Assembly (NCBI GenBank): GCA_965153355.1
Contig: OZ231126.1
Span: 45,570,001 to 45,634,000, forward strand
DNA length: 64,000 bases
Reading direction: 5' to 3'
From: Flaccisagitta enflata
Taxonomy: Eukaryota
The notes beneath the pieces are model-generated. The model worked only from the letters and a program-made list of their open reading frames with translations, was not told the origin of the DNA and made no database searches. A program made the translations under genes and the position numbers. Below are positions 19,108 to 62,631 of the stretch, piece by piece (within the stretch, counting starts at the first letter, position 1; each line of letters begins with the position of its first letter).

Positions 19108-19706
19108 ACGACTAATCTGGGGTCGGTGGTTCATTTTGTGAAGGATCAACACTCCGTTTCAAAGTTTATGCTTTTCTTTTCAGGCTGGTAGAATTTTTTA
19201 GAAAAAACTACATATCATATAACTAGCAAGTATTTTCAGTGAATCACGACCACCTACAGACCTAAAAAGAAAATGAATTTATGGTAGATTTCGACCGAGT
19301 TAAACAGTTGATACAAACTTTATATCTACAATAACAACGATCAGGAAATTATGACGATACTGACAGAGTAGACTATTTACATTATCATTATCCATTTTTC
19401 TTCGCCATCCGGTCGCGTAGTTCAGTTGGAGGTTTTCGGCCGATGGATCTTCTTCACTGCCTCTCCGCCGGTTTTCCTCGCAGTTTTAGCGCCTGGTAAG
19501 TATTTTGCCGGAAAAATATTCAATGATTTACCGCTGCGGAATTCGCGCGCAACCGTGGCTGCATGTTATTAAAACATTAAGAAAAAAAATCACTGACCCA
19601 TGTTTTTTTTCTTTCTGATATGACTGTTAGAACCAGTTATCAAAGAGATACACAAGAATTGGATCAATCAAATCAGGGACGGGGATCTTAGAAAGACTCT
19701 TCCTAC

Positions 19707-20117
19707 CTTTTTTGTGATAGGTGGTTCACCAAATGCCTCGAGGACTCTATTGATGTCAATATTGTTCGGATTGAGATCCACTTCGGGTGGAATACTGGGT
19801 GGGGCAGTGCAGTCGTACAATGTGCAACCATTTTCATCTTGGCCAATCGCTACTGGCGCGGTTGGGGGATGACAATAGAATTTCTCCATCATCCATGCAT
19901 CATCCATGCATCCTTTGATACAGCCTCTGATCATGCAGTCACGTTCAGTTCTGCCTTGGAGTCTGTAGACATAGCCAACGGGACATCTGATGGTGGGTGG
20001 ACCCGCACAGCCAGGTCTGAGAGCCTCTGGATCTTCGGTAATCCATTCCTCCGGCCACTCATACTTGACCTCTTCCTCTTCCTCTTCCTCACCCTCTTCC
20101 TCTTCAAAATGAATTTC
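19707..20117 (-). CDS. 411-nt phase-0 Cys-rich exon (copy 2)
   Basis: Duplicate of 20869-21267 with an in-frame 12-nt insertion. All 8 Cys and both splice sites are kept. Confidence 0.85.
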
Positions 20118-20309
20118 CTGAAAGGTGTTTATGTTTATCATACTCATTTATCAAAATGATATGGAATTATGCCCACATTGGACACTCTGAATCACTCTTT
20201 GGCTATATCTGTTGGCTAGTGTCTTTGTCCGTCTGTTTGTGTGTGATACAGAAATAGTAAGATTGGACTTATAATTTGAATAATTAACTCAAAAGCCAAT
20301 CCAACTCAC

Positions 20310-20405
20310 CTTTTTAAGGATCGGAATCTCAGACAAGGCTTCAAGGCTGCTGTCAAAGTCAATTTTGGGTATGCTTAGTGGGACCTCAGGTACAGCACGC
20401 AGTTC
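20310..20405 (-). CDS. 96-nt phase-0 exon (copy 2)
   Basis: Duplicate of 21460-21555 with intact splice sites and the same peptide. Confidence 0.8.
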
Positions 20406-20868
20406 CTGGTAAGAATTTTTTGTGGGTCAATAAGATTTCAGAAAATGCTCCTTTGTACAAATTATAGCTCGTCAAATCTAATTAGTTTGTATAATTAACT
20501 TAAGTGACCTGATATTACTTAATATGACTTAAAATGACTTAGAATCATTAAGAGTGACTTAGAATGACTTAAAATGACTTAGAATGACTTGGAATGACTT
20601 AGAATGACTTCTAATGGCATTTGGGCAGGAGCTGTGAGTCCAAGAAAGTTAAAATCGCTGAAAAAGTACAGTACGATGGGAGCAAAGACGACCTAGACTG
20701 GAGGATAGATTTTAGGTATTTTAATTTCATTTGATTTATAAAGGAAATTGAGATCTATGCTAATTAAAGGTTGTTTGAATATGTTAGTTTTTCTCATTTT
20801 TCAACTTGTGACTTGACTTCATCGGAACTTCAAATCAGGGACGGGGATCTTAGATAGACTCTTCCTAC

Positions 20869-21267
20869 CTTTTTTGTGATAGGTGGTTCACCATATGCCT
20901 CGAGGACTCTATTGATGTCAATATTGTTCGGATTGAGATCCATTTCGGGTGGAATGCTGGGTGGGGCAGTGCAGTCGTACAATGTACAACCATTTTCATC
21001 TTGGCCAATCGCTACTGGCGCGGTTCGGGGAGGACAATAGAATTTCTCCAAATTCATGCATCCTTTGATACAGCCTGTGATCATGCAGTCACGTTCAGTT
21101 CTGCCTTGGAGTCTGTAGACATAGCCAACGGGACATCTGATGGTGTGTGGACCCGCACAGTTAGGTCTGAGAGCCTCTGGATCTTCGGTAATCCATTCCT
21201 CCTGCCACTCATACTTGACCTCTTCCTCTTCCTCTTCCTCACCCTCTTCCTCTTCAAAATGAATTTC
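20869..21267 (-). CDS. 399-nt phase-0 exon: poly-Glu spacer plus two C-x7-C-x15-C-x4-C modules (copy 1)
   Basis: TTTCAG| acceptor, AAG|GTAGGA donor, 8 patterned Cys, DENGC motif. Confidence 0.85.
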
Positions 21268-21459
21268 CTGAAAGGTGTTTATGTTTATCATACTCATTTA
21301 TCAAAATGATATGGAATTATGCCCACATTGGACACTCTGAATCACTCTTTGGCTATATCTGTTGGCTAGTGTCTTTGTCCGTCTGTTTGTGTGTGATACA
21401 GAAATAGTAAGATTCGACTTATAATTTGAATAATTAACTCCAAAGCCAATCCAACTCAC

Positions 21460-21555
21460 CTTTTTAAGGATCGGAATCTCAGACAAGGCTTCAAGGCTGC
21501 TGTCAAAGTCAATTTTGGGTATGCTTAGTGGGACCTCAGGTACAGCACGAAGTTC
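21460..21555 (-). CDS. 96-nt phase-0 exon ELRAVPEVPLSIPKIDFDSSLEALSEIPILKK (copy 1)
   Basis: TTCTTACCAG| acceptor, AAG|GTGAGT donor, open frame. Confidence 0.8.
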
Positions 21556-21828
21556 CTGGTAAGAATTTTTTGTGGGTCAAAAAGGTTTCAGAAAATGCTC
21601 CTTTGTACAAATCATAGCTCGTCAAATCAAATCAGTTCGTATAATTAACTTAAGTGACCTGATATTACTTAATATGACTTAAAATGACTTAGAATGATTA
21701 AGAGTGACTTAGAATGACTTAAAATGACTTAGAATGACTTGGAATGACTTAGAATGACTTATAATGGCATTTGGGCAGGAGCTCTGAGTCCAAGGAAGTT
21801 AAAATCGCTGAAAAAGTACAGTACAATG

Positions 21829-22580
21829 GGAGCAAAGACGACCTAGTCTGGAGGATAGATTTTAGGTATTTTAAATCTATTTGATTTATAAAGGAAATTG
21901 AGATCTATGCTAATTAAAGGTTGCTTGAATATGTTAGCTTTCCTCATTCTTCAACTTGTGACTTGACTTCATCAGAACTTCATTTTTCAACATTTTGACC
22001 TAGCCTATCTGATTAGGCAAAAAATCTTATATAATGTTTAAAAAAGGGCCAGATACACGGCTACCGAAGTAGCATGCGGGCGGGCAGGGGGCATATTTGA
22101 GGTCACCAGGCCATTTGGGCTGGAGCAGTGAGGTCAAAGAAATAAAATCATAAAAAAAGTAAAGTGTGACCGACCGACCAACCAACCTACCAACCAACGG
22201 ACAAAGCAGGTTGTAGAGTTGACTAAAAATCAGCTAAATTGGAATATTTTCACAGGTTCTACAGCTATTTGAAAAAAAAAAATTATGTAAATTGGTACCC
22301 AGGCAATGCTTAAAATAGGCATAAACCTGTAAAAATGGTCCAATTGAACTAATTCTTTTTTTCTGAATTATATAAAATCTTCTGCCCGATCTGATGAGCT
22401 AGGTTAAAACATTGAGAAATGACGTCTTGATGAAGTCAAGTTGCAAGTTGAAAAATAAGAGAAGCCAATTCATTCAAGCAATAGAGCAATATTTAATTAG
22501 CATAGATCTCAACTTTTTAATACTTCAAATGAAATTAAGATACTTAAACTCTATCCTCCAGCCTAGGTTGTCTTTACTCC
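21829..22580. mobile_element. Fold-back/MITE-like element with ~200-bp diverged inverted arms; family A copy nested at ~22045-22229
   Basis: 21829-22033 is the diverged reverse complement of ~22370-22580. Confidence 0.7.
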
Positions 22581-46242: not shown

Positions 46243-46466
46243 CCGCGTCCCGCTTTGATTCCCATACCTTCAAGCCACCCTTTAGTTAATTAGGACTCAA
46301 TCCCTCATTTTACTTTGTCACTTGTTCTCGTCATCCCTTCACCCATGCCGCGCACTTATTCTGACATTCTTCATCCAATGATTCATTTGCCTTTTCTAAC
46401 ATGTCATGTCCAAGTCATGTTTAAAGTGTCACAATTTTGTTAGTCAATAGTCACTGGGTCCCCATT

Positions 46467-46974
46467 TGTGCCCGCTCGCTCCCTTTCTTACTAACCGGAG
46501 TAGTAGTGACGACGCAATTAACGGTCTGAAATAATTTATTAGCAATCATTAGTAATCATTAACAATGAGCAGTAATAATTGGCAATCATTAGTACATCAA
46601 TTTACTTCTGTACAAAGCTTAGTACCTGAAACTTCAACTCATTTCGGCATTCAGGGAACCAGAGGGTAAGTAATGCTAATCAATTCATCATTAATCTGCA
46701 AAGGATGGAAAAAGAGTAACATTAGTAGGCTTATTTACTCCTAATCGCGAATAAACAATGAGAGCGAAGGAATAAAGACGAGCGAATGGACTAAACAGCA
46801 GGTAAACGCTCTTATAAGGAAATTCTCTTGGCATGTATCATCAATTCCAGCTTAGTTTCCGTTCGCTTCGAAGCGGTGAACTATTAATAGAGGGCGCTAC
46901 TAAAAGGTAAGTTTTTAGAGGCAAAGTAAGGTCTTAAAACAAATGAACAGTGCTTGCTCACGCGAGCCCGCACA
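46467..46974 (-). repeat. 3' LTR (508 bp)
   Basis: Copy of 51834-52341, preceded on the minus strand by the PPT at 46975-46983. Confidence 0.95.
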
Positions 46975-46983
46975 CCCCCCACC
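46975..46983 (-). promoter_or_regulatory. Polypurine tract (PPT)
   Basis: Minus-strand GGTGGGGGG immediately 5' of the 3' LTR. Confidence 0.8.
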
Positions 46984-47002
46984 TGGACTGTAAAACATGT
47001 CC

Positions 47003-47786
47003 AGCGCAAGCATGAGAAATCGTAAGCGCAAGCATGAGAAATCGTAAGCGCAAGCATGAGAAATCGTAAGCGCAAGCTTGAAAGCGTGAAAGTCAAAGGC
47101 CAAACTTGAAAGCATGAATGCAAAAGGCCAAACTTGAAAGCATGAATGCAAAAGGCCAAACTTGAAAGCATGAAAGCAAAAGGCCATACTTGAAAGCATG
47201 AAAGCAAAAGGCCAAACTTGAAAGCATGAAAGCAAAAGGCCAAACTTGAAAGCATGAAAGCAAAAGGCCAAACTTGAAAGCATGAAAGCAAAAGGCCAAA
47301 CTTGAAAGCATGAAAGCAAAAGGCCAAACTTGAAAGCATGAAAGCAAGGCCAACCCTGAAAGCATGAAAGCAAATAAAACTTGAAAGCATGAAAGCAAAG
47401 ACACAAACTTAGCAAAAGGCCAAACTTGAAAGCATGAAAGCAAAAGGCCAAACTTGAAAGCATGAAAGCAAAAGGCCAAACTTGAAAGCATGAAAGCAAA
47501 AGGCCAAACTTGAAAGCATGAAAGCAAAAGGCCAAACTTGAAAGCATGAAAGCAAAAGGCCAAACTTGAAAGCATGAAAGCAAAAGGCCAAACTTGAAAG
47601 CATGAAAGCAAAGGCCAAACTTGAAAGCATGAAAGCAAAGGCCCAACTTGAAAGCATGAAAGCAATAAACTTGAAAGCATGAGCAAAGGCCAAACTGAAA
47701 GCATGAAAGCAAAAGGCCAAACTTGAAAGCATGAAAGCAAAAAGGCCTAACTTGAAAACATGAAAGCAAAAGGCCTAACTTGAAAG
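47003..47786. repeat. Minisatellites in the LTR element's 3' non-coding region: 22-bp unit x3, then 28-bp unit AAAAGGCCAAACTTGAAAGCATGAAAGC x~25
   Basis: Directly visible tandem units. The 28-aa periodicity of the ORF translations confirms the 28-bp unit. Confidence 0.95.
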
Positions 47787-48641: not shown

Positions 48642-48839
48642 TCATTGAGACTTGAGGCACATTTCACGTCGGCAAATTCGAAGTATAAATGCAAAATCAA
48701 TGAGAGCATGAACTAACTGACGAGAAAGAGCTAAAAAGAGTGAGAGTATAAAGAGTAACAATCTAAATGTTATCACCAAAACGGCGTCTTCTTTTACGTC
48801 GAATTGAGCGAAGTAGCTGAAGATAAACATTGGACTCAT
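48642..48839 (-). CDS. Small hydrophobic ORF (65 aa) overlapping the long ORF's stop (ATGA)
   Basis: ATG overlaps the TGA of the long ORF. Hydrophobic stretch AVLVITFRLLLFILSLFLAL. Confidence 0.3.
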   Translation of the reverse strand: MSPMFIFSYFAQFDVKEDAVLVITFRLLLFILSLFLALSRQLVHALIDFAFILRICRREMCLKSQ

Positions 48840-50558
48840 TTCTCACTTTTTCTCCCAGCGTCGGTAGCGTAATCGGAAGGCCCGTGACATCGTTGTCGCG
48901 GGAAAAGGCTTGGGGTGGCGGCCGGGAATCTCGTAGGGTGGCGGCCGGGAATCTCGTGGGGTGGCGGCCGGGAATCTCGTGGCTGTGAAGCGTGATTGAG
49001 GCCCGTAGAAGCGTGATTGAGGCCCGTAGAAGCGTGGTTGTGGCCCGTAGAAGCGTGGTTGTGGCCCGTAGAAGCGTGGTTGTGGCCCGTAGAAGCGTGG
49101 TTGTGGCCCGTAGAAGCGTGATTGATTTTCGAGTGGAGACGGAGAATTCTTTTCTTTCTTCTTTTTCTCCTCCTGGACTCGAACTCGTAACGTCGAAGAC
49201 GCGGCTTTTTCTTTTCTTTTCTGGCATAGAAAAGTTGAAGGCGTAAAAATCTTTTCTTTCTCTTTTTTGCCCTCGCGTAAGTCTTCTCGTCGCAAAAATC
49301 TTGACGATGGGTCCCTCCAAAAAAGGAGAGAAAAGGAAAAGCTTTGCAGTTTCCAGATGACGACGGACGGCCGTCAGATGAATCTTTGCCGTCTGCAGAT
49401 GAATCTTGACAGTCTGCAGATGTTCGACGGTCGAAAGAAGAAGCTTGGTAGTCTGTAGATGACGTCAACAGATGATTGACGGATGTTTGGCAGTCTACAG
49501 ATAACGACCGACGATCGAAGGTGAAAGCTTGTTCATTCACAGATGATACTTGGTGGTCTTCAGATGATGACTGAAGATGAAAAGAAGAAACTTGGATGTC
49601 TTCAGATGACGACGGACAGTCGTCAGATGATTCTTGAGGGTCTGCAGATGATGACCGGCGGTCAACAGATGAATCTTGGTAGTCGGCAGATGTTCGATGA
49701 TCGATAGAGGAAGCTTGGTAGTCTGTAGATGATGTCAACAGATGATTGACGGAGGCTTGGCAGTCTACAGATAACGACCAACGATCGGAAGTAAAGGCTT
49801 GTTCATTCGCAGATGATTCTTGGTTGTCTTCAGATGATAACTGAAGATGAAAAGAAGAGACTCGAGTGTCGTCAGATGACGACAGACGGCCATCAGATGA
49901 TTCTTGGCGGTCTGCAGATGATGACCGACGGTCGACAGAATAAGCTTGGCGGTCTGTAGATGATGTCAACGGATGATTGACTGAAGAAGCTTGGTGGTCT
50001 ACAGATGATGTCGACGGACGTGGACGGTCGATCAAAGAGGCTTGATAGTCTGCAGATAAATTCGTAACAGATGTCGGCTTAATCTTGGCAGGTGCCGGCG
50101 GAATCTTGGCAGGTGCCGGCGGAATCTTGGCAGGTGCCGGCGGAATCTTGGCAGATGACGGCAAATTTGTGAGAGATGCCGACAAAATCAAAAACGTAGA
50201 TGAGGAAGAAGATGAATCGTAAAGAAGAGGCTCGTCAGAATGATGAACAGGACGTGAAGGAAGAGAAAAGTTAGTGGCAGTGAGAAGCTGATTTTCTTCG
50301 TTGATCGATGGACATGGGACTGGAGGCACTTCCGGTTGTGAGGCGGTCATGCTTGAGACGTCGAAGGTTTCTTTTCCTTCCTTCTTCCTCTCTTTCACTC
50401 CAGATCTTTCTTTTCCCTTTCTCTCCATCGTCAACATGAATTCGTTCATCTCCTCCTTAATCTTGATCATAATGTTGCCAATTTTCTCACTATCTCCGTC
50501 CATCATGGCTTCGAAGATATCGTCCAATTCATTTTCCGTTGCCTCTTCCAATTCCGAT
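48836..50558 (-). pseudogene. C-terminal part (~573 aa) of the orphan ORF: charged helical region, Ser/Asp-rich ~90-aa repeats, basic NLS-like clusters, HASTGHN repeats
   Basis: 1.7 kb stop-free frame, in frame with the upstream part once the 50559-50937 insertion is removed (F-T-M-K|S-E-L-E-E). Confidence 0.7.
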
Positions 50559-50937
50559 TTTTAGTCGCGTGCACGCGACTCTACAACCCGCTTTGTCGGT
50601 CCGTCCGTCGGTCCGTCGGTCCGTCCGTCCGTCGGTCCGTCCGTCCGTCCGTCACACTTTACTTTTTTGTACTATAACGTCAACTCTTAGGTCATTTTAA
50701 GTCATTTTAAGTCATTTATAGTTATTCTAAGTCATTTTGAGTCAGTCTAAGTCATTTTAAGTCATTTTAAGTCATTTTAAGTTATTTTAAGTTATTTTTG
50801 GTTTTTTGTTTTTTTAGTCATTTTAAGTCAATTTTGGTCATTTTAGGTCATTCTAAGTCATTGAAAGTCATTCTAAGTCATTCTAAGTCACTCTTTGTCT
50901 GAAAGTCTCGCACGCGACTTATAGGTGTTGGCCTTGT
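50559..50937 (+). mobile_element. Helentron/DINE-like non-autonomous element (family A) nested in the LTR element's ORF
   Basis: TTTTT plus 18-bp palindrome AGTCGCGTGCACGCGACT, (GTCC/GGTC)n, 10-bp AAGTCATTYT array, subterminal GCACGCGACT and GGCCTTGTT end. Confidence 0.85.
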
Positions 50938-51698
50938 TTCATCGTAAAACGGAAATTCATTTCTTCATCCAATTTCATAATTTCTTTTATTTTTCTTTCT
51001 AGTCTTTGAAACAGCGACTCTCTTCTTTCTTCTTCGTCGTTGTTCAAATTGGATTCCAAGTGAGTGGCAAGGAGATCCAAATGAAGAGGACGATGTTGAT
51101 TTTCCGTCAATGCCTTGTGCGCGACTCGGCAATCGACATCACCACCGCCTCCAAAGCTTTCGCCGCCACCATCAACACCGCCGCCTCCACCATCGAGAAC
51201 GCCGCCGCCGCCGCCATTTCTCAGACTGATGTCAACACCACCGCCACTTTCATCCTCCTGGCCATTCATCGTCGTAGTGGCATGAGGCTCTTGCTCAGTG
51301 CCGAAGGCAGCGTCGTAGAGGAAAAGTTTTGGTAAATGCATCAAACAAAATGGCGACTGTCCATTAATAAAACGGCGTGTCTCTTCTAAAAGGAGGCGAT
51401 AAGGCTCGATGATGACATAGAAATATTCCCACAACGCGTAGGAAATGTCTTGAAGCTGCAGCGTTACAACGGCGTAGCTGATGGCGTTGTTAGCTGCGCA
51501 AAAAAGCTGATAGATTTCTTGGGTTGTCTCCGGCGATCGCGTAAATGCGGAGAGGAGAGAATCGTAAAGTAGTTGATAGATGGCAGGAAGCTGATGCCGA
51601 TCCATCGCTTGGTGGACGTGACTCTTGACGCCCATAGTTGAGTCGGCTGTAATCGGTTCCGACTTTGAAATTCCGAGGACGTGACTCTTGACGTCCAT
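50938..51698 (-). pseudogene. N-terminal part (~254 aa) of the LTR element's orphan ORF, truncated by a nested insertion
   Basis: Non-repetitive helical-looking protein (LPAIYQLLYDSLL...LWEYFYVIIEPYRLLLEETRRF), then a Gly-rich linker and charged segment. The last 5 residues of the ORF-track call (QGQHL) come from the inserted element. Confidence 0.7.
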
Positions 51699-51820
51699 CG
51701 TTACGTCGGCGGGAATCGGTTCCGACGTTAAACTTCAGAGGACGTAGCTCTTGACGTCCATCGTAACATCGCCACCAATGACGTCAGCGGGGCTCGGCGC
51801 CGACGACGATCAGCGAAGCG

Positions 51821-51833
51821 ATGAGTTGAAGCT
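51821..51833 (-). promoter_or_regulatory. Primer-binding-site position holding a non-tRNA tract complementary to the element's own LTR
   Basis: Minus strand reads LTR|AG CTTCAACTCAT with no TGG. It is the exact complement of minus-strand ATGAGTTGAAG inside the LTR (51999-52009). Confidence 0.65.
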
Positions 51834-52341
51834 TGTGCCCGCTCGCTCCCTTTCTTACTAACCGGAGTAGTAGTGACGACGCAATTAACGGTCTGAAATA
51901 ATTTATTAGCAATCATTAGTAATCATTAACAATGAGCAGTAATAATTGGCAATCATTAGTACATCAATTTACTTCTGTACAAAGCTTAGTACCTGAAACT
52001 TCAACTCATTTCGGCATTCAGGGAACCAGAGGGTAAGTAATGCTAATCAATTCATCATTAATCTGCAAAGGATGGAAAAAGAGTAACATTAGTAGGCTTA
52101 TTTACTCCTAATCGCGAATAAACAATGAGAGCGAAGGAATAAAGACGAGCGAATGGACTAAACAGCAGGTAAACGCTCTTATAAGGAAATTCTCTTGGCA
52201 TGTATCATCAATTCCAGCTTAGTTTCCGTTCGCTTCGAAGCGGTGAACTATTAATAGAGGGCGCTACTAAAAGGTAAGTTTTTAGAGGCAAAGTAAGGTC
52301 TTAAAACAAATGAACAGTGCTTGCTCACGCGAGCCCGCACA
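51834..52341 (-). repeat. 5' LTR (508 bp)
   Basis: No differences from 46467-46974 on manual comparison. Imperfect terminal IR TGTGCCCGCTCGC/GCGAGCCCGCACA. Minus-strand TATAAG near 52178-52183 and AATAAA at 51902-51907. Confidence 0.95.
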
Positions 52342-53418
52342 CCATTTCTGGACACTGGACACGTCCCTCACCTCCTTAACTCTCCCTTTCATACTCCCAG
52401 AGATTCCATCACTGCTTATTCCTCAACACTCCTAAGTACACCTCTACCTTTTCTTTACCACAACCATGATAATCCCACGCTTTCCCCCTTCCCCACTTCG
52501 TATCTTTAACGATTGTAATTTTTAGACGTGGGCACGCGACTCAACAACCTGCTATGTCGGTTGATAGGTCGGTCGGTCAGTCGGTCAGTCGGTCCGCTCT
52601 GCGACCCCTCTTTGCGGCATTCTATGAAAAGTGGAACAATATCCCTCACTATACTCAAACTGAAATAAATGGAAGAGGGCCTTGTGAACCCTAGTTCATG
52701 GGCGCACCACTCCTAGGTTCCCATAATCTGAAAAACATTCTTTGTAAATATAACCCAAAAAAACAAACTGCTTATCAAAACTGAGACAAAAGAAATTAGG
52801 GGCAAAGGATTGATACCTGTGTAACCAGTGCACCACTATATACCCTTTTCCGTATCTTTGTTTGGTCGTTGATGGTCTTCTCCTTCTGCAGCATCCTGTC
52901 GTCAGCCTCCCTGAACCCTCATCCTCCCCATTCCGCACCTCTACGCCGTCCTTGATGATTTCCCCTCCTGCGGCACCCTGTCTTTGATCCTCTTACATCT
53001 AACACCTCCACCTACCACGTTCCACAGTTCTGCTACGTCGTTGAAGGTCTCCCATCTTTGCAGCACCCTGTCATAGACCCCCTTTCCTCCCGATCCACAT
53101 CTATCCATCTCGTTCCGCACATCTACCCCGCCGTTGATGTCCTCCCCTGTTCCGTGGCACCCTGTCTTCGACCTCACGTGACTGTGACCAGAAATCGGGG
53201 CTGAAATGGTTGAATCACGTCATCAGATCCCAATTCGCCAAAAAGATCAGTTTCACCCTTCACCCACATTTTGCCGCTTCCGTTTACCTCCTCCTCTTTC
53301 TCCTCCTCCTCTTCCTCCTCTTCCTCCTCTTCTCGTTGTCTCCCTCGTCCGACGCCTCTCATGAAATGCCTATGATGCATCGACAGTAAATCCGACTAAG
53401 TCTGCGACGTACTGCATT

Positions 53419-53618: not shown

Positions 53619-54368
53619 TAGACAGTCGGACAGTTACACCGACAGATAGATAATCAGAAAGAACGACAGGCAGACAGACAGACAAAGAGAGGCTAGGATT
53701 AATGAAAAAGAAAAGTACAGTAATAAACCTGCGCGGCACACACAAAAAAACTTACAGCCCGTGCCCGATGGCCCGTGGTTTGGTTGATCAAATGACAGAG
53801 ACGCGTGGACAGACAGGCAGACAGTAAAAGTCATGAATATGATATCGTAAAAATCTGGAATAGCGATCATTCTGCATGCCATTTTTTTCTGGTGGTCACA
53901 AAAAGGGGGCAAATCGGAGCTTAGCAGACAATACATGAAAAAGGCAACGGAAAAAAAAGACCATCACTTTCCGTGGTTCCACTGTCGATCATATTTCTGA
54001 CAAAAAAAAGTGCTTTTTTTATCATTGCCCGTCGGTCGTCCGTTCTTGTTTGTCTTTTTTTTTTTTTTTTTTTTTTGTCTTGATTTTTTGCCATTCCATT
54101 ATTTGAGATGGTAGATTTTTTGGAAAGAAGCGTCAGATTTCACTATGCGAACGTTCTTTGTCACCCAAACTCTGAACAGCATTATACTGGACTGCCAACT
54201 CATTTCGACTGTTTGTCTTTTTTTTTAAATGTGTATGCCTGTTTCTCCGTCAGCCGCATAGTCAGTATCTTGTTCGACTGTCGATTTGTGTGTCTGACTG
54301 TCTGTCCGTCTGCTTGTCTGTCTGTGTCTGTCTCTGTCTGTCGGTCTGTTTCTTTCTGTCTCTGTCTG

Positions 54369-62413: not shown

Positions 62414-62631
62414 TTTTTAGTCGCGTGCACGCGACTCTACAACCCGCTTTGTCGGTCCGTCCATCCGTCGGTCCGTCGGTCCGTCCGTCCGTCCGTCCGT
62501 CCGTCACACTTTACTTTTTTGGGTTTTTGCGGTCTTTGGCCTCACTGCTCCTGCCCAAATGATGGAGTGGTCTCAAATATGGCCCCTGCCCACCCGCACG
62601 CGACTTGGGTAGCCGTGTATCCGGCCTTGTT
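62414..62631 (+). mobile_element. Family A Helentron/DINE-like element, reference copy. Others at ~1804, 3336-3792, 7935-8073, 8405-8557, 12895-13095, 22045-22229, 29420-29629, 31020-31215, 31573-31806, 39535-39725, 43478-43675, 45782-45908, 62651-62822
   Basis: 5' palindrome, GTCC microsatellite, 3' subterminal GCACGCGACT plus GCCG..CGGC hairpin, T-rich ends. This matches the established DINE-1/HINE layout. Confidence 0.85.

Follow-up and report, generated by a model that had tools for sequence, protein, structure and literature searches.

The self-primer of the LTR retrotransposon Tf1 is said to be 11 nt long, a length attributed to Levin in 1995. That Tf1 starts reverse transcription from a 5' segment of its own mRNA is established (PMC10085805, PMC4600332), and self-priming is described as common in the Tf1/sushi chromoviruses of fungi, vertebrates and non-seed plants (PMC10085805, PMC6317226). 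A survey of plant elements predicted it for 12% of them, including the copia lineage TAR (PMC6317226). The account of Tf1 given in PMC10085805 describes a pretzel of three duplexes as required for self-priming. For Tf2, the choice among alternative transcription starts is reported to determine which transcripts can self-prime (PMC5341516).

We analyzed a window of 64 kb, by which we mean the whole stretch of DNA under study, and found in it a complete LTR retrotransposon of 5,875 bp, lying on the minus strand from 52341 to 46467. The element resembles a Tf1-type self-primer in the features that can be seen from sequence alone. It has no pol gene by which it could be placed in the Tf1/sushi group. 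It shares with Tf1 the fold-back polarity of the primer and, if the figure reported for Tf1 is right, the primer length of 11 nt. Like Tf1 and Tf2 of Schizosaccharomyces pombe, and like Tj1, Tosmo1-3 and Tcry1 as these are described in the sources cited, it has no tRNA-type primer binding site (PBS), and it has a PBS just past the terminal CA of the LTR that is complementary to its own LTR (PMC10085805, PMC4600332, PMC5341516). Unlike the Tf1 group, this copy has neither gag-pol nor a chromodomain. It also differs from Tf1 in that the primer segment is here a putative 5' end of the RNA, and in having a marine eukaryote rather than a fungus as its host. Taking the evidence below together, we consider it likely that this young non-autonomous element starts minus-strand synthesis by Tf1-like self-priming.

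The two LTRs are each 508 bp long, with a G+C content of 39%. The 5' LTR (52341..51834, minus strand, as for all features of the element) starts with TGTG and ends with CACA, forming an imperfect terminal inverted repeat, and it is identical to the 3' LTR (46974..46467) at 508 of 508 positions (100%). A 5-bp target-site duplication, AATGG, flanks the element, with its upstream copy at 52346..52342 and its downstream copy at 46466..46462. Between the LTRs lies an internal region of 4,859 bp, the 3' end of which is filled by a 28-bp minisatellite (family D4, 46980..47703). The minisatellite adjoins a polypurine tract (PPT), AGGTGGGGGG (46984..46975), that sits directly 5' of the 3' LTR. Since the LTRs are identical and the target-site duplication is intact, we take the copy to be young, the product of recent reverse transcription and integration, and so the priming device that it carries should be a working one.

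We searched four internal ORFs, part of a set of nine proteins, and a further eight internal ORFs against Pfam and found no family at an E value of 0.01 or better. Gag, protease, reverse transcriptase, RNase H and integrase were all unrecognizable in the internal region by this search, which bears out the preliminary description in treating the element as non-autonomous. The paired LTRs, target-site duplication, PPT and interior of several kilobases without gag-pol domains are those of a LARD-like element. As judged from this content the element is non-autonomous, and its enzymes must come in trans.

Of the internal ORFs, ORF1 (50919..51698) encodes a mostly helical orphan protein of 259 aa, and ORF2 (48836..50506) encodes a Ser/Thr-rich protein of 556 aa with 270-bp tandem repeats inside its coding sequence; neither has a Pfam family. 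They are separated by a repeat-rich segment (50507..50918) made up of a dispersed repeat, a GTCC-type run and a 10-bp tandem repeat. In a relative, P0001, the ORF1 frame runs uninterrupted into the start of ORF2 and this segment is missing, so the copy in the window carries an insert at 50507..50918. The AlphaFold (AF2) model of ORF1 had a mean pLDDT of 44.5 and was too poor for use. Structural look-alikes of ORF1 in the Atlas were CATCHR-type helical proteins with scores of at most 0.87, which we regard as leads only.

Four relatives of ORF1, with 60 to 91% identity, were found among metagenome proteins. A representative library of 1.84 billion proteins gave six matches, one of which (P0009) is a distant relative with 37% identity. 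The ORF1 relatives are short, and none of them, nor any of the six matches from the representative library, is fused to pol. Two of the six, P0007 and P0008, were rejected as translations of tandem repeats. The sole match to a small ORF that spans U5 and the PBS, P0010, tracks the LTR as far as its last codon and diverges from there on; it therefore represents a solo or 3' LTR with its flank and is uninformative about the PBS. No autonomous partner with gag-pol was found in the public protein and contig collections. A scan of metagenome contigs based on the ORF1 alignment matched 117 pattern stretches, none of which was confirmed, and a scan of metagenome contigs with the 20 nt of the LTR end gave one match, rejected as a chance hit in an unrelated G+C-rich contig. 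Three scans of viral contigs yielded no relatives of the element. The 64-kb window as a whole has no tRNA genes and no Rfam matches, and ten candidate host ORFs elsewhere in it had no usable Pfam match. What can be said of the host is that it is a marine eukaryote whose genome is very rich in microsatellites, which falls short of the invertebrate-like genome of the preliminary description.

In the standard retroviral model, the 5' edge of the PBS is where minus-strand DNA begins, and the sequence upstream of that edge becomes U5. In our element, the minus strand continues past the CA that ends the 5' LTR with AG (51833..51832) and then CTTCAACTCAT (51831..51821), so that this 11-nt tract begins 2 nt past the LTR. 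There is no TGG in the first 56 nt past the LTR (sequence AGCTTCAACTCATCG...), and the first one lies 57 nt downstream, at 51777..51775. Because the PBS must abut U5 and no TGG occurs within those 56 nt, the 3' end of a tRNA cannot be the primer; by the same model, the PBS must abut the LTR, and the TGG at 51777..51775 would therefore be irrelevant.

The tract CTTCAACTCAT is the exact complement, over all 11 nt, of ATGAGTTGAAG (52009..51999), a segment inside the LTR at LTR positions 333-343 that we propose as the self-primer. At the edge next to U5, the primer's 3' G (51999) is paired to the C at the 5' end of the tract (51831), so that a 3' OH made there would point into U5. With a G-U and an A-U pair added, the pairing reaches through the 2-nt spacer as far as the first base past the LTR and spans 13 nt. 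The perfect block ends on that side at the AG spacer and on the other side ends sharply at 52009, beyond which an A-C and an A-G mismatch follow. The 11-mer occurs three times in the 64-kb window, once in each LTR and once as the complement at the PBS, versus 0.06 occurrences expected from shuffled sequence. The element has no PBS for a tRNA 3' end and carries at the PBS position a significant, correctly oriented complement of its own LTR. The preliminary description had reported the missing TGG, the exact 11-nt complement 2 nt past the LTR, its extension to 13 nt with one G-U pair and a primer whose 3' end faces U5, and each of these observations held when we repeated it.

We looked for other copies in public sequencing runs by aligning the contigs of four runs to the stretch at 80% likeness or better. 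The stretch is present in 20 of the 24 runs listed, which come from 10 studies and comprise marine metagenomes and DNA runs of one coded organism; 8 of the 20 are recorded as RNA. The family is highly repeated in the coded organism, with 236 contigs of run X5 aligned. The variants listed cover 40 of the 82 substitution rows and 12 of the 26 indel rows. Among them, neither the PBS tract with its spacer (51821-51833) nor the primer segment (51997-52009) contains any, and 7 of the 12 indel rows together with 4 substitution places fall in 51807-51818, just past the PBS. A diverged copy in an RNA-library contig, X10 (51740-52274), has all 12 of its 12 substitution places outside both tracts; about 4 of its 7 gap letters lie outside the variants listed, and an indel in either tract is possible. 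The X1 contigs, which may share a population with the window and are not independent of it, show two differences over the PBS region (51808 and 51810) and none over the primer. In every copy that is fully visible, both tracts are unchanged, as would be expected under any primer. The constraint stops at the edge of the PBS, as that on any PBS would; this is not covariation.

How readily could such a match arise by chance? In 20,000 dinucleotide-preserving shuffles of the LTR, an exact complement of at least 11 nt starting in the first 8 nt past the LTR was found 22 times (0.0011). As a check on real sequence, we took the 62,932 minus-strand 11-mers that lie outside the LTRs; the LTR contains the reverse complement of 14 of them, which gives about 0.0018 for 8 start positions. 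The primer/PBS duplex has an energy of −16.4 kcal/mol, versus −3.6 ± 2.0 kcal/mol for the shuffled PBS tract, and none of 1,000 shuffles reached it. The match is well above chance for one element, yet at a probability of about 0.001 to 0.002 a scan of many thousands of LTR elements would still yield a few such matches, and the conclusion therefore depends on the geometry as well. The polarity, the 2-nt spacer past the CA and the 11-nt block all fit the Tf1 type, and self-priming is our preferred explanation.

These estimates also bear on the idea that the tract is a PBS for some host RNA and not for the 3' end of a tRNA, with a 5' tRNA half or another small RNA as candidates (for example, one complementary to AGCTTCAACTCAT(CG)), with the match to the LTR arising by chance. 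PBSs that use half-tRNAs and have no TGG are on record, and they make up about 2% of the plant elements in the survey cited, the tRNAs named there being 1/2 tRNA-Met and 1/2 tRNA-Ile (PMC6317226). The tract is conserved among copies, as the PBS for a host RNA would be, and a primer from outside that offered a perfect 13-nt complement, with no G-U pair, would fit slightly better than the LTR segment does. Against this, a host primer needs a coincidence of about 0.001 to 0.002, and that coincidence must in addition mimic the canonical geometry of 11-nt block, 2-nt spacer and polarity. We consider a host-RNA primer unlikely.

The motifs of the LTR suggest where the transcript begins and ends. The only AATAAA in the LTR (51907..51902, LTR positions 435-440) lies 92 nt after 51999 and is probably the polyadenylation signal that marks the end of R. 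The only TATAA (52183..52179, LTR positions 159-163), which is a motif match only, is followed 27 nt downstream by an Inr-like CCATTC (52156..52151). An AATAAA about 100 nt downstream of the primer segment and a TATA/Inr-like pair in the LTR had both been noted in the preliminary description, and the coordinates given for the pair there proved correct. The pair offers weak evidence for a candidate alternative start near 52154, some 145 nt 5' of the primer. At 52009 itself neither a TATA nor an Inr motif is present, the sole TATAA being 174 nt upstream. The best reading of the sharp pairing edge at 52009 is nevertheless that the productive transcript begins there, because the PBS would be copied anew from the primer in every cycle. 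A start at 52009 would give a U3 of 332 nt, an R of about 120 nt and a U5 of about 55 nt, which are the usual proportions of an LTR. The RNA-library contigs cover the LTR. They may derive from DNA and hold no information on transcript start, end or strand, and stretches that they leave uncovered carry no weight. Assemblers can join U3-R to R-U5 through the R that the two have in common, and the contigs therefore cannot fix the start; one of them, X12, runs from one LTR end to the other, as expected of a contig assembled from DNA.

The preliminary description had suggested that the primer might lie inside R. This is a less likely variant of self-priming, with a transcript that would begin near 52154, under the TATAA, and a primer that would be excised about 145 nt from the cap. 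The 27-nt distance from TATAA to CCATTC is the classical spacing, the centroid fold of an RNA that starts at 52155 retains the primer/PBS helix, and the alternative starts of Tf2 make it conceivable that two starts have different roles. The evidence for the upstream start is, however, a single motif pair in an AT-rich LTR, and it would make R about 270 nt of the 508-nt LTR and leave a U3 of just about 187 nt. A primer of about 155 nt would also, in the retroviral model, let plus-strand synthesis read through past the 11 nt unless a second cut were made, whereas the pairing stops at 52009, and the minimum free energy (MFE) structure of the long RNA does not contain the helix. The pairing edge at 52009 argues against the earlier suggestion, and we think an internal primer improbable.

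We folded the leader RNA, a check that the preliminary description had proposed. With the start set at 52009, a 14-bp primer/PBS helix that encloses some 165 nt of RNA is seen in the MFE and the centroid structure alike. With the start set at 52155, the centroid retains the helix, and the MFE structure has a local hairpin instead. The helix is thus present in the centroids of both folds, but the stability of the leader as a whole is ordinary, with z scores of −0.47 and −0.27 for the starts at 52009 and 52155. The side duplexes of a Tf1-type pretzel, which we scored against 1,000 shuffles in a comparison that leaves room for weak helices, were not above shuffled sequence, unlike what is described for Tf1. 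With the LTR downstream of the primer they reached −13.5 and −11.4 kcal/mol (p 0.56 and 0.80), and with the sequence upstream of the primer they were again no better than shuffles (p 0.33 and 0.15). Self-priming, as first proposed for this locus, is upheld as the best available explanation by the match and the geometry. That the complementarity was selected as a long-range helix between R and the leader (for packaging, dimerization, translation control or PBS presentation) while another primer is used is the least probable reading and one we hold very doubtful: the helix is predicted in both leader folds, an RNA with an upstream start can place the segment in the loop of a local 6-bp hairpin, and the pretzel side duplexes of Tf1-type priming were not found, but such a helix would occupy the exact site of primer annealing and leave no free PBS, no TGG or other candidate PBS abuts U5, and the local hairpins around primer and PBS do not outdo shuffled sequence (z −1.14 and +0.11).

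Self-priming from the 5' end of the RNA would proceed as follows; the geometry is what we observe, and all of the steps are inferred from it. The genomic RNA would start at or very near 52009 and end past the AATAAA at 51907..51902, giving an R of about 120 nt and a U5 of about 55 nt. The 11 nt at the start of this RNA (52009..51999) would fold back onto the PBS (51831..51821) and close the domain of about 165 nt. A partner element would supply the reverse transcriptase whose RNase H then cleaves after 51999, and the 3' OH freed in this way would be extended over the AG spacer and U5-R to yield strong-stop cDNA, which would transfer to the 3' R. Plus-strand synthesis would run off at the end of the 11-nt RNA primer and so re-create the PBS as an exact copy of the primer. 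That the perfect block is exactly 11 nt long and has sharp edges may be explained in this way, because the PBS would be retemplated from the primer, and in so young a copy the block should delimit the primer precisely. The AG past the CA would be the 2-nt overhang that integrase removes in the retroviral model. All of the enzymes would be supplied in trans by an autonomous relative.

The element may also be compared with self-priming systems beyond the Tf1 group. Butler and colleagues are said to have inferred self-priming in 2001 for sushi-ichi and the vertebrate Tf1/sushi elements from an LTR segment complementary to the PBS, work that is cited in PMC10085805 and PMC4600332. Our case is like theirs in that self-priming is inferred from sequence, on the sushi side in an animal genome. 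Sushi-ichi and its vertebrate relatives are autonomous chromoviruses placed by pol phylogeny, and the present element has no pol. For the plant elements Tcn1 (Ty3/gypsy) and TAR (Ty1/copia; Houba and Osr-1), too, the prediction in the survey cited comes from complementarity between PBS and LTR, and together these elements indicate that the trait is not confined to one superfamily; unlike our element, they are autonomous (PMC6317226).

LARDs and TRIMs resemble the element in overall architecture. They have LTRs, a tract at the PBS position, a PPT and a target-site duplication without pol, and they are mobilized in trans; the identical LTRs of our element point to recent activity. Most of the LARDs and TRIMs described keep a tRNA-type PBS, whereas here the PBS matches the element's own LTR. 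The relevant passages of one report describe bivalve TRIMs with no recognizable PBS and propose no mechanism for them (PMC6934838). Skipper of Dictyostelium likewise lacks the TGG signature, and the account cited identifies no tRNA primer for it. Unlike our element, Skipper is described there with a polypyrimidine tract and with no complementary LTR segment (PMC5006619).

Our search of the open-access literature found no report of self-priming in an invertebrate or a marine planktonic host. The comparison could be taken much further. The element might belong to a self-priming LTR lineage of marine animals that is independent of the Tf1/sushi chromoviruses, that does without the pretzel side duplexes, that excises its primer from inside R (from a hairpin loop, by two cuts) and that has kept its cis-acting apparatus in a highly amplified non-autonomous element. 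We regard this larger proposal as improbable.

On the features of its sequence, the element is probably a further example of the known mechanism of self-priming, and the understanding of that mechanism would be unchanged unless the primer proved to be internal to R. If self-priming is confirmed here, the host range of self-primed reverse transcription would be widened. It would also follow that a non-autonomous element can carry the full cis-acting requirements for self-priming and so constitute a natural minimal substrate. Finally, with a family as highly repeated as this one, the co-evolution of primer and PBS might then be read directly from genomic copies.

In the long terminal repeat (LTR) of the element, contigs from metatranscriptome libraries, in run X12 (positions 51846-52343) and run X10 (51740-52294), covered both U3 and R-U5. 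A contig from X12 stopped at the LTR borders. Either DNA carry-over or an assembly that passed through the shared R region would be expected to give this pattern, and therefore the X12 and X10 libraries do not locate the start of the element RNA.

We also looked at the sequence surrounding the primer segment, the stretch of the 5' LTR proposed to serve as self-primer (52009-51999). In an RNA that started upstream, positions 51992-52022 would form a hairpin with a 6-bp stem (CCUGAA/UUCAGG), and its 19-nt loop would contain the segment. This hairpin was not more stable than shuffled sequences (fold z score of −1.14). Outside the element, 12 nt at 54196-54207 on the plus strand were identical to plus-strand positions 52001-52012 of the LTR and so overlap the primer segment by sequence. 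The number of such matches to the LTR was at the level expected by chance.

The element itself contains tandem repeats. A leader repeat with three units of about 60 nt (51600-51770) encodes the repeated N terminus of ORF1 (MDVKSHV...), and the number of units varies among relatives. The repetitive Ser/Thr-rich portion of ORF2 corresponds to a 270-bp tandem pair with 83% identity (49347-49886), and a 28-bp minisatellite of about 25 units (46980-47703) adjoins the polypurine tract.

Elsewhere in the window, a tandem duplication with units of approximately 1,165 bp and 95.8% identity occupies 19668-20832 and 20830-21982. Each unit carries one minus-strand ORF of 155 to 159 amino acids with an acidic N terminus; the single ORF of the pair that was searched (19671-20147) had no Pfam match. 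None of the 27 ORFs searched in the window contained a convincing Pfam domain: a glycine-zipper match fell on a repeat translation, and an AChE_tetra match was below threshold.

The whole window is very rich in microsatellite and low-complexity sequence, with GA/CT, GTCC, and AAGG-type runs every few kilobases. One dispersed repeat, roughly 90 nt long, terminates in a GTCC-type microsatellite and is present in three copies: one within the element, between ORF1 and ORF2 (50558-50649), one a short way upstream of the 5' LTR (52519-52610), and one 10 kb away (62414-62505). This repeat possibly represents a SINE- or MITE-like element whose tail is the microsatellite.
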